Origin: Escherichia coli
Lineage (GTDB): Bacteria; Pseudomonadota; Gammaproteobacteria; Enterobacterales; Enterobacteriaceae
Strand: one strand, 5' to 3'
Length of the DNA: 64,000 nucleotides
Assembly (NCBI RefSeq): GCF_029227855.1
Contig: NZ_CP074356.1
The notes beneath the pieces were generated by a model. That model was not told where the DNA came from. It made no database searches and was given only the letters and a program-made list of their open reading frames with translations. Shown here one piece after another: positions 14,102 through 14,756 of this stretch (the first letter of the stretch is position 1; each line of letters begins with the position of its first letter). The position numbers and the translations under genes were made by a program.

Positions 14102-14683
14102 ATGAATACTTTTGATAATATTGTTTTAAACAGTGAGAAATATAAAAACATTACAATTAATAACAAGGGTGAAAATAATCATATATATATTGGACAAGGT
14201 TATAAAGATAAAAAATTAGTAATAAATTTTTTAGGGCGTGATAGTGTAATTAAGTTAGGTGATAATGTAAATTTTCAGGGGGTAATTACAGTTTCAACAA
14301 ATTCAAGAGTAACCATAGGAAATAATTTTGCATCTACAGGAGGTGTCACAATTATATGCAGAGATGATTGTAATGTATCAATTAATGATGATTGTATGTT
14401 TGCAACATCAATTCTAATCAGAACGTCTGATGAACACTCAATAATAGATTTGCACACTAACGAAATAATTAATAAAAATAAAGATGTTACAATTGGAAAA
14501 CACGTCTGGATATGTGATAACGTTCTGGTTTTGAAGGGGGCAATAATTGGAAGTGGTTCAGTTATAGGTGCAAGGAGTGTTGTGACTGGTACTATACCTG
14601 AGAATAGCTTATGTGTTGGGGTTCCTGCTAGAGTAGTAAAGAAAGATATAAGATGGGATAGAAAAAGACCCTCAAAACTATAA
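14102..14683 (+). CDS. hexapeptide-repeat (left-handed beta-helix) acyltransferase, probable capsule O-acetyltransferase
   Basis: 193 aa with repeated [LIV]-G-x-x-x-x hexapeptides (IGKHVWICDNVLVLKGAIIGSGSVIGARSVV); GAGGAG ribosome-binding site 8 nt upstream; AT-rich codon usage. Confidence 0.75.
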   Translation: MNTFDNIVLNSEKYKNITINNKGENNHIYIGQGYKDKKLVINFLGRDSVIKLGDNVNFQGVITVSTNSRVTIGNNFASTGGVTIICRDDCNVSINDDCMFATSILIRTSDEHSIIDLHTNEIINKNKDVTIGKHVWICDNVLVLKGAIIGSGSVIGARSVVTGTIPENSLCVGVPARVVKKDIRWDRKRPSKL

Positions 14684-14719
14684 TTTTAAAGGTCTGTTAT
14701 TGTCATCTTGATGATTGGT

Positions 14720-14756
14720 AAGGATAAACAAATGAATGTTTATCCTTGTTTTTTAT
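14720..14756 (+). terminator. rho-independent terminator after the acetyltransferase gene
   Basis: Perfect 11 bp stem aaggataaaca / tgtttatcctt with 6 nt loop, followed by gtttttt. Confidence 0.6.

Follow-up and report, generated by a model that had tools for sequence, protein, structure and literature searches.

We analysed a stretch of 64,000 nucleotides of Escherichia coli DNA, referred to below as the window, which contains a kps capsule locus of type K126 of the 2026 kTYPr catalogue. The K-specific proteins agree with K126_9 to K126_12 of this catalogue in length (652, 800, 342 and 193 aa) and in domain coordinates. Four complete E. coli genomes share the 9.1-kb region at 99.9-100% identity. 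Within kTYPr, K126 is classed as group 2A. In line with a group 2 locus, kpsFEDUCS and kpsMT are present and adjoin gsp genes. The canonical layout, with region 2 placed between kpsS and kpsT and with kpsMT/region 2 running towards kpsFEDUCS, was not found: in K126, kpsM-kpsT come straight after kpsS on the same strand, an arrangement that belongs to a rearranged kps class acknowledged in the kTYPr catalogue paper. The minus strand carries kpsS-kpsF and, co-oriented and directly downstream of kpsS, the low-GC genes kpsM (21059-21838) and kpsT (20373-21062), which together occupy positions 20373-21838. These are followed by the genes for a GT4 glycosyltransferase (K126_9, 652 aa; 18221-20179), for an 800-aa protein that combines a KpsC-like GT107 domain and a GT29-like domain with TPR repeats (K126_10; 15812-18214), which is predicted to be a ulosonic-acid (Kdo) transferase, and for a galE-type UDP-hexose 4-epimerase (K126_11, 342 aa; 14772-15800), the last gene of the minus-strand operon. 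The closest catalogued K type is E. coli K6, whose proteins K6_7, K6_8 and K6_9 are 41%, 37% and 59% identical to K126_9, K126_10 and K126_11, respectively. K6 shares with K126 the dual GT29-GT107 protein, interpreted as a ulosonic-acid (Kdo) transferase, but has no listed partner for K126_12. A role for ops and RfaH in kps region 3 is well established. An ops-like element, GGCGGTAGCGTA, is located on the minus strand at 21866-21877, 27 nt 5' of the kpsM ATG, which implies that the minus-strand operon would be subject to RfaH-dependent antitermination. No ops copy was found on the plus strand upstream of the gene described next.

The sole plus-strand member of the capsule locus is the acyltransferase gene K126_12 (WP_001091198.1; 14102-14683), an intact ORF encoding 193 aa. 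Its product is annotated by RefSeq as 'acyltransferase', and a profile search assigned it to Pfam family Hexapep (PF00132) with 32.4 bits versus a cut-off of 27. A ribosome-binding site read from the sequence, GAGGAG (14091-14096), lies 5 nt ahead of the ATG. The gene faces minus-strand galE, and 88 bp separate the two stop codons. Because it lies on the other strand, K126_12 cannot share a transcript with the remaining capsule-specific genes, and its separate transcription follows from this geometry. The earlier note had described a hexapeptide acyltransferase gene opposite in orientation to the other region 2 genes and convergent with the epimerase gene, preceded by an AT-rich spacer and a strong ribosome-binding site, and followed by a terminator hairpin facing the epimerase gene. 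All these elements were recovered, the spacer and the hairpin at the positions given below.

The gap before the galE stop codon contains an intrinsic-terminator-like site on the plus strand (14719-14754), in which a stem-loop is directly followed by a T-run, as expected of a Rho-independent terminator. The stem (14719-14730 and 14737-14748) has 12 pairs, only three of which are G-C, and encloses a 6-nt loop; T6 occupies positions 14749-14754. With an energy of -13.2 kcal/mol (z = -4.3) it was matched by none of 200 shuffles, but in a larger context of 92 nt it is not exceptionally stable (z = -1.6). Two terminator-like sites were found in region 13000-16000, a number not above that in shuffled sequences (1.1 +/- 0.9). 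A working terminator at 14719-14754 is best described as plausible, and the G+C-poor stem makes its termination efficiency uncertain. On the minus strand, a terminator-like hairpin of 13 pairs followed by TTTTCT (14666-14695; -13.8 kcal/mol, z = -3.8) overlaps the last acyltransferase codons, and is a candidate for the end of the kpsMT/region-2 transcript.

The 965 bp 5' of the acyltransferase gene (13137-14101) contain no annotated gene and have a GC content of 24-32%. This spacer consists of two parts. The first (13137-13650; 32% GC) is a conserved, AT-rich flanking stretch that separates yghD (gspM) from the capsule locus. It occurs in 52 of the 5426 complete genomes of E. coli, at 81-100% identity, is unannotated in all records listed, and is common to kps loci that have kpsM-kpsT after kpsS in the same orientation. 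Similarity between K types ends at position 13650, and the flank ends precisely where a small plus-strand ORF of 34 aa (13546-13650) stops; this ORF gave neither an NCBIfam nor a plasmid match. The second part (13651-14101; 24% GC) is specific for K126 and also occurs in K108/K51-like loci; it was found in only 16 of the 5426 genomes, at an identity of at least 99.9% in four and of about 93% in twelve. Searches of the spacer by tblastn with all E. coli and Rahnella module proteins gave chance matches only (E > 0.3), thus revealing no coding remnants, and known RNA families yielded only two sub-threshold chance matches in region 13000-15000.

Any promoter dedicated to the acyltransferase gene must be located within 13651-14101. 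The best sigma-70-like match in the promoter scan, TTGACA-18 nt-TATAGT (11/12; 13647-13676, plus strand), overlaps the stop codon of the small ORF, would imply a 5' UTR of about 420 nt, and is identical in the K108/K51-like copies. An equal or better match occurred in 6% of shuffled spacers, and promoter-like sites are generally frequent in this AT-rich DNA (27 versus 19.1 +/- 3.5 in shuffles). An alternative, proximal candidate is a perfect TATAAT -10 hexamer (14034-14039, plus strand), 62 nt 5' of the ATG, which is also kept in the K108/K51-like copies; its weak -35 region (3/6) kept it off the scan list, as the scan required at least 4/6 in the -35 hexamer. These consensus-level matches make a dedicated acyltransferase promoter plausible.

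The best solved relatives of the acyltransferase are NeuO of E. coli K1, encoded by prophage CUS-3 (3jqy; E 1.7e-31 for an aligned stretch of 172 residues, 18-189 of the query), and OatWY from serogroups W and Y of Neisseria meningitidis (2wlc; E 6.5e-23). Maltose and galactoside acetyltransferases scored well below these two (E 1e-17 or weaker). Residues His112 and Trp136 of K126_12 align to NeuO His147 and Trp171, have the same 24-residue spacing as in NeuO, and are invariant in a 27-member family alignment. In NeuO these residues (His119 and Trp143, crystal numbering His147 and Trp171) are catalytically important (PMC3046976). The AlphaFold model of K126_12, of moderate confidence (pLDDT 79.6), consists entirely of short beta-strands as in a beta-helix; NeuO and OatWY were also its top Foldseek matches in the PDB, but these were too weak (TM 0.46, rmsd about 10 A, E 2e-3) to serve as structural confirmation. 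By its sequence, K126_12 is a member of the NeuO/OatWY capsule O-acetyltransferase family, and would share with NeuO the left-handed beta-helix hexapeptide acyltransferase fold. The exact protein is present on 89 contigs. A database cluster at 90% identity mixes the acyltransferase with GspJ sequences and is uninformative.

NeuO acts on a group 2 capsule of E. coli, as K126_12 would, and neither of the two genes is part of the region-2 operon; neuO is however prophage-borne, whereas the K126 gene is inside the kps locus. No neu genes (neuABC) were found in the capsule locus or in the rest of the window, and the K126 acceptor is therefore probably not polysialic acid. More probably it is a Kdo-containing polymer, judging by the GT107/GT29 protein and kpsU. 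OatWY, a member of the same subfamily as K126_12, acts on a heteropolymer of hexose and ulosonic acid, and the set of a GT4 protein, a ulosonic-acid transferase and GalE would predict an OatWY-like polymer class for K126.

The collinear six-gene module kpsM-kpsT-GT4-GT107/GT29-epimerase-acyltransferase is also present in Rahnella bonaserana (L003) and in two distinct metagenomic loci (L008 and L009, with L010 being of the L009 type). Rahnella has the same six orthologues as E. coli K126 in the same order, with 51-74% identity for all six proteins, and both modules are low in GC (33% versus 31%) beside higher-GC region 1 genes. The Rahnella acyltransferase orthologue has a comparable ribosome-binding site, TTGAGAGG, immediately 5' of its ATG. 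In the Rahnella and metagenomic modules, however, the acyltransferase gene is the last one and co-oriented, starting 22-25 bp after the epimerase gene, with no terminator-like hairpin. The acyltransferase gene of Aeromonas salmonicida is likewise co-oriented. The two modules also differ in setting, as that of Rahnella runs towards kpsS-kpsF in the classical group 2 manner, while that of K126 follows kpsS in the same direction. The meningococcal oatWY gene is transcribed together with the capsule synthesis genes as the last of their operon, an arrangement like that in Rahnella and unlike that in K126. Since the closest relatives have the gene co-oriented and last, the E. coli orientation probably results from a secondary inversion and is not the ancestral design; this inversion probably took the acyltransferase gene out of the ops-bearing kpsMT/region-2 operon. 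No relevant report was found in a literature search for kps acetyltransferase genes in opposite orientation.

Taking these data together, we consider it likely that K126_12 is the O-acetyltransferase of the K126 capsule, encoded by an inverted, monocistronic gene with its own transcription on the plus strand. The NeuO/OatWY-type left-handed beta-helix enzyme would O-acetylate the K126 capsular polysaccharide, probably a polymer that contains Kdo and hexose and is synthesised by the GT4, GT107/GT29 and GalE proteins. In the K126 lineage the gene would have been inverted at the distal end of the locus, carrying along little more than its own ribosome-binding site, and would thereby have become a monocistronic unit convergent with the ops-bearing operon. 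Transcription would start in the upstream AT-rich DNA, with 13647-13676 or the surroundings of the TATAAT at 14034-14039 as candidates, and would most likely end at the hairpin and T6 of 14719-14754.

A rather unlikely alternative is that the gene is a silent relic: the inversion would have cut it off from the operon promoter, the AT-rich DNA upstream of it would be silenced (e.g. by H-NS), expression would be very low, the K126 capsule would be acetylated marginally or not at all, and the gene would be intact only because the locus is young. The inverted segment indeed appears to comprise the ribosome-binding site and the coding sequence only, with no recognisable ancestral upstream sequence, and the DNA in front of it has the 24% GC given above. 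Moreover, K126 loci are nearly clonal, being 1-2 SNPs apart, which leaves little time for decay, so that an intact gene is weak evidence of selection. A sister copy has decayed: twelve genomes with K108/K51-like loci carry at the same site a 93%-identical pseudogene with five disabling changes, namely two deletions, a G-tract expansion, His112Tyr and an IS3 truncation. The acyltransferase is thus dispensable in at least that context. The comparison of the two copies nevertheless argues against a relic in K126. When five orthologues serve as outgroups, the K126 copy agrees with the outgroup residue at 9 of the 11 informative non-synonymous differences, and all four indels fall on the pseudogene lineage; over a divergence of 7%, the K126 lineage has thus gained almost no protein-changing substitutions and no indels. 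The strong ribosome-binding site and the catalytic residues are kept, and the near-consensus promoter-like site and the perfect -10 hexamer are both present and conserved. An inactive protein, which the earlier note had named as an objection to its proposal, is not what these features suggest: with His112 and Trp136 retained and the K126 lineage constrained, the enzyme looks active.

Transcription of the gene might also depend entirely on read-through, either from the conserved small ORF at 13546-13650 or from the gsp type II secretion operon that ends at 13136, in which case acetylation would follow the regulation of those units. These units are on the same strand as the acyltransferase gene, the small ORF is bordered by the best promoter-like site, and the scan detected no terminator-like site on the plus strand from 13000 to 14717, a region that includes yghD, the small ORF and the DNA up to and including the acyltransferase gene. 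As no such site intervenes, read-through is possible and a dedicated promoter would not be required. However, the RNA would have to extend over about 450-965 nt of untranslated AT-rich sequence, where Rho-dependent termination would be expected, and other K types have a convergent operon after the same flank, which suggests that transcripts from it are not designed to continue. We consider sole dependence on read-through improbable.

The earlier note had also proposed that separate transcription would allow acetylation to change by phase or form variation, and for this part our results were negative. Neither a repeat array nor a tract beyond A6, T6, G5 or (AT)5 is present in the acyltransferase unit, units of 3-9 nt occur in it in no more than two successive copies, and there is no length variation among K126 genomes. 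The comparison of homopolymeric tracts in natural variants that it had suggested, made with three complete genomes, revealed single-base differences only and no slipped-strand changes; the acyltransferase gene is identical in one further complete genome and in two draft assemblies. The only microsatellite-like tract of the unit, (AT)5 at 14181-14190 within the coding sequence (plus strand), is unchanged in all K126 genomes compared, and the pseudogene of strain WP4-S18 has one AT unit fewer. NeuO, in contrast, is phase-variable by a 5' AAGACTC array of 2-93 copies. An apparent natural 'off' variant, P0001 (157 aa), proved to be cut by a contig end and not by a frameshift. Orientation and intact frame were the same in all K126 genomes and contigs examined. 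We also considered an invertible segment and rejected it: a 2-kb region around the gene contained 77 inverted-repeat pairs, the flanking repeats were only 17-25 nt long and 71-83% matched, with pairs of 17-22 nt at 82% complementarity enclosing the segment, and did not stand out from the AT-rich background, and the longest flanking pair has one arm in the flank that is common to loci without the acyltransferase. No recombinase or invertase gene was found near the acyltransferase gene. Hence, although the enzyme is a relative of NeuO, the (AT)5 tract differs in one pseudogene copy and the gene is inverted relative to its relatives, a contingency locus that turns acetylation on and off at high frequency by slipped-strand mispairing or segment inversion is very improbable, given that the N-terminal repeat region of NeuO, any array of at least three units, any homopolymer longer than six and an invertase gene nearby are all absent, that a single orientation and an intact frame were seen throughout, and that the inverted repeats are ordinary for such DNA. 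Nothing in the sequence points to a stochastic on/off switch, and the only form-type variation seen is that between K types, in the form of the decayed copy in K108/K51-like loci.

If the acyltransferase gene is indeed an inverted, monocistronic unit with transcription of its own, acetylation would no longer be coupled transcriptionally to the synthesis and export of the polymer. The two units might still influence each other, and we regard the following form of antagonistic coupling, brought about by the inversion, as improbable: RNA polymerase of the convergent operon, loaded with RfaH at ops, would pass the hairpins at 14750-14666, which are weak and G+C-poor, and go on into the acyltransferase gene in antisense direction. 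By collision or antisense RNA, strong transcription of the operon would then reduce expression of the acetyltransferase, while weak transcription of the operon would give more acetyltransferase. If true, O-acetylation per polymer would be inverse to capsule output, without a stochastic switch.

O-acetylation of capsules alters antigenicity, sensitivity to phages and depolymerases, and vaccine epitopes, K1 with NeuO and meningococcal serogroups W and Y being the classic cases. The practical consequences for typing are modest, as typing by gene content calls K126 whatever the acetylation state, and it would be wrong to count the decayed copy of K108/K51-like loci as a working acetyltransferase. 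Rahnella and K126 together constitute a natural experiment, in which the same module has its modification gene inside and outside the operon, respectively. For K126 itself, the gene predicts a non-stoichiometric O-acetyl modification, the level of which would be set by a promoter other than the one that drives polymer synthesis.

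The window is chromosomal DNA of E. coli, in which the kps capsule locus follows the type II secretion operon (gsp), whose last gene, yghD/gspM, lies on the plus strand and ends at 13136. On the minus strand are kpsF to kpsS (30228-22248), the low-GC kpsM (21838-21059), kpsT (21062-20373), the gene for a protein of 800 aa in which TPR repeats accompany a KpsC-like GT107 domain and a GT29-like domain (15812-18214), a gene for a 652-aa GT4 glycosyltransferase between these last two, and galE (342 aa; 15800-14772). In agreement with the earlier note, the acyltransferase gene (14102-14683), convergent with galE, is the sole plus strand gene of the locus. 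The GC content falls from ~50% in kpsF-kpsS to ~30% from kpsM onwards. The 9.1-kb variable part was found at 99.9-100% identity in 4 of 5426 complete E. coli genomes.

The lengths and Pfam domain coordinates of the encoded proteins agree with the K126 entries of the 2026 kTYPr catalogue of E. coli capsule loci: K126_9 (652 aa, GT4), K126_10 (800 aa; Capsule_synth 96-332, TPR, GT29-like 565-800), K126_11 (342 aa, GalE) and K126_12 (193 aa, LbH_MAT_like, Hexapep 128-163). The one exception is the start of GT29, at residue 586 instead of 588. On this evidence the window very probably has capsule type K126, one of 55 genome-only K types in the catalogue, entered without serology or polysaccharide structure. 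The main text of the catalogue paper does not mention K126, nor does it discuss gene orientation, promoters or RfaH. The nearest catalogued type is K6, whose dual GT29-GT107 protein is read there as an ulosonic-acid (Kdo) transferase. The 800-aa protein shares 53% identity with a Rahnella protein and 37% with the K6 protein for which synthesis of a Kdo polymer has been proposed; its GT29 domain is of a sialyltransferase family, and genes for sialic acid synthesis are absent from the locus. This protein may be the polymerase of a Kdo-containing, as yet uncharacterised capsule.

The layout of this group 2 locus is non-canonical (20373-23480, minus strand). The kpsM-kpsT pair (~35% GC, 74% identity to Rahnella proteins) comes directly after kpsS on that strand and has a leader of its own, with an ops element, within the 409-bp gap after kpsS; as a consequence of this co-orientation kpsF to galE all run in one direction, in contrast to the classical convergent layout. 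The catalogue paper acknowledges such rearranged loci as a class. Another member of this class, with the same flank and kpsMT at 96% identity, is present on NZ_CP137739.1, a 187.5-kb record of pig strain HNSQ2209; in the genome search that returned it, exactly one match was counted as plasmid-borne. Positions 30400-64000 form a mosaic genomic island with a CbtA/YeeU toxin-antitoxin pair, an antirestriction gene, a TIR-domain protein, truncated tssF/tssG, several IS remnants, a 1652-aa AAA-domain protein, and a NotI-family restriction enzyme adjoining a cytosine methyltransferase.

The 193-aa acyltransferase is of the hexapeptide type (Pfam Hexapep, 32.4 bits against a cut-off of 27). Its closest solved relative is NeuO, the polysialic acid O-acetyltransferase of E. 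coli K1 (3jqy; E 1.7e-31, query residues 18-189), followed by OatWY of N. meningitidis (2wlc; E 6.5e-23). These are the two capsule O-acetyltransferases of this fold, and both scored well above galactoside and maltose acetyltransferases. His112 and Trp136 align with NeuO His147 and Trp171 (equivalent to His119 and Trp143), which are catalytically important according to the NeuO structure paper (PMC3046976), and together with Asp110 and Asn124 they are invariant in an alignment of 27 family members. The AlphaFold model (pLDDT 79.6) has short beta-strands, as in a beta-helix, and Foldseek ranked NeuO and OatWY first, but with weak scores (TM 0.46). As neither the locus nor the remaining window contains neu genes, and given kpsU, GT107/GT29, GT4 and GalE, a polymer built from Kdo and a hexose is the more likely acceptor. 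A NeuO-like acyltransferase with the catalytic His and Trp motifs, 34% identical to the K126 protein, is also encoded in the locus of E. coli TCM3e1 (6472-7125), which is of the same class and another K type; its gene is co-oriented there and is the first after kpsT. NeuO-type acetyltransferases thus recur in GT29-containing K types, but in operon orientation. In a 90%-identity protein collection the acyltransferase falls in a 1016-member cluster of mostly GspJ pseudopilins, a clustering artefact which makes cluster-level statistics unusable for this protein.

The nearest homologues (63-66% identity) are encoded in a Rahnella bonaserana locus and in two more distinct metagenomic loci; three further loci are repeats of Rahnella-like types. 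All three distinct loci have the order kpsM, kpsT, GT4 (652-653 aa), GT107/GT29 (796-804 aa), epimerase (336 aa) and acyltransferase (190-194 aa), with the six genes on one strand and 22-25 bp between the last two. Since all six proteins are 51-74% identical between E. coli and Rahnella, this is one orthologous module. The Rahnella-type module is convergent with kpsS-kpsF and the acyltransferase gene is its co-oriented last gene, whereas this gene is inverted in K126. An Aeromonas salmonicida homologue (52% identity) is likewise co-oriented, directly 3′ of a large protein without Pfam match. Because the relatives carry the gene co-oriented, its orientation in K126 is most simply read as a derived inversion. 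Similarity to Rahnella extends over the coding sequence and includes a ribosome-binding site of related sequence (TTGAGGAG versus TTGAGAGG); upstream of this site the ancestral context is unrecognisable in K126. Judged from this comparison, any promoter of the K126 gene seems not to have travelled with it. The C-terminus of GalE (14772-14790, minus strand) reads ...NGFYSVNS in E. coli and ...NGFN in Rahnella, a divergence next to the intergenic gap that fits a rearrangement whose breakpoint lay only a few nucleotides from the ancestral stop codon.

That gap, of 88 bp between the acyltransferase gene and the galE stop codon, contains a 12-bp hairpin (14719-14748) followed by T6 (14749-14754). 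No terminator-like site was found around the Rahnella acyltransferase gene, and the hairpin-bearing gap appears specific to the E. coli layout. The earlier note had described a clean terminator facing the epimerase gene. A plus strand hairpin with its T tract is indeed present (14719-14754; -13.2 kcal/mol, z = -4.3 against shuffles), but the stem has only three G-C pairs, the fold is unexceptional in a 92-nt context (z = -1.6), and terminator-like sites across the 3-kb region are as numerous in shuffles. On the minus strand, a hairpin followed by UUUUUCU (14695-14666; -13.8 kcal/mol) overlaps the final acyltransferase codons and may end the kpsMT/region-2 operon transcript; if leaky, it could speculatively allow antisense transcription over the acyltransferase gene.

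Upstream, the strong ribosome-binding site (GAGGAG, 5 nt before the ATG) and the AT-rich spacer (965 bp without annotated gene, 24-32% GC) are as the note had stated. The probable promoter of the note is plausible: the best plus strand candidate, TTGACA-18-TATAGT (13647-13676), matches at 11/12 positions, and a second has a perfect TATAAT (14034-14039) with a poor -35, but promoter-like hexamer pairs are abundant (27 versus 19.1 +/- 3.5 in shuffles) and 6% of shuffled spacers contain a site as good as the best one or better.

The spacer consists of two parts. The first (13137-13650) is common to 48 other complete genomes (81-89% identity), which have the same kpsS-then-kpsMT layout and different K-specific genes. 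The second (13651-14101) occurs beyond K126 only in 12 genomes, where it runs into a 93%-identical acyltransferase copy in the same place and orientation. The loci of these genomes encode a 363-aa Stealth protein and a 1173-aa CDP-glycerol glycerophosphotransferase and on that account match K108 and the near-identical K51; they include those of strains 746 (9452-11082 of its locus) and WP4-S18-ESBL-07. Their copy is a pseudogene: it has lost 4 bp and 6 bp in two deletions, a G tract is expanded, His112 has become Tyr, and an IS3 remnant has taken the place of the 3′ end; an 85-aa piece of it bears the label 'acyltransferase' in RefSeq. This arrangement suggests that a K-specific region may have been swapped in beside an older K126-like edge.

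The K126 gene itself could be a poorly expressed relic. Intactness among K126 loci is weak evidence for selection because these are nearly clonal: two genomes have one missense SNP (14384 A>G, Asn95Asp), one further genome has two spacer SNPs, and another complete genome and two draft assemblies have an identical gene. When K126 and pseudogene copies were polarised with five orthologues as outgroups, however, K126 kept the outgroup residue at 9 of 11 informative amino-acid differences and all four indels fell on the pseudogene lineage. The K126 protein has thus been held near its ancestral state across 7% divergence, a constraint that argues for a functional acyltransferase and leaves a relic unlikely.

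Still less probable is that the gene relies on read-through from gsp or from a small ORF in the spacer, even though no plus strand terminator-like site separates either from it. This unannotated 34-aa ORF (13546-13650, plus strand; VVRVLWWIIGLLIIVVIFAVLVVRSRMQDMDDDY) encodes a single hydrophobic helix plus an acidic tail. It lies at the extreme end of the conserved kps flank, K-type similarity stopping exactly at its TGA, and is intact in five versions, in flanks of only 81-89% identity, where most of its changes are synonymous or conservative. The hairpin upstream of it (13389-13410) has compensatory pairs (G.T, G-C, A-T) across strains. The ORF, which was not found in Rahnella loci, Aeromonas loci or plasmids, may encode a genuine small membrane protein or be a type I toxin-like gene.

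A true contingency gene is very improbable, and the phase or form variation of acetylation put forward in the earlier note found no support. NeuO phase variation depends on a 5′ array of 2-93 AAGACTC heptanucleotides (PMC3046976); the K126 gene lacks such an array, and NeuO homology begins past the repeat-bearing region. Within 13651-14800 homopolymers reach at most A6, T6 and G5, the sole microsatellite is (AT)5 at 14181-14190, and no 3-9 nt unit is repeated three or more times. The natural variants the note had proposed to check revealed no length change among the K126 genomes compared. One pseudogene copy has an (AT) tract one unit shorter, which indicates that the tract can slip, but only in an already dead gene. 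A truncated database entry was rejected as a natural variant since a contig end cuts the sequence. An invertible segment was also rejected: the inverted repeats on its flanks do not stand out from the background, there is no recombinase gene nearby, and about 20 assemblies with the exact protein have the same gene neighbourhood.

RefSeq already annotates the acyltransferase gene, and the catalogue lists it as K126_12. In the literature searched, no description was found of its assignment to the NeuO/OatWY family, of its derived inversion with respect to the Rahnella-type module or of the decayed copy in K108/K51-like loci; each is an incremental addition. In the model we favor, transcription of the gene would start within the AT-rich upstream DNA and end at the hairpin at 14719-14754, and the gene product would acetylate the K126 polymer. 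It is established that RfaH, acting through the ops element, prevents termination in kps region 3. The minus strand operon has such an element (GGCGGTAGCGTA) 27 nt before kpsM, and there is none on the acyltransferase strand; expression of the acyltransferase would therefore be uncoupled from that of the RfaH-dependent synthesis and export genes.
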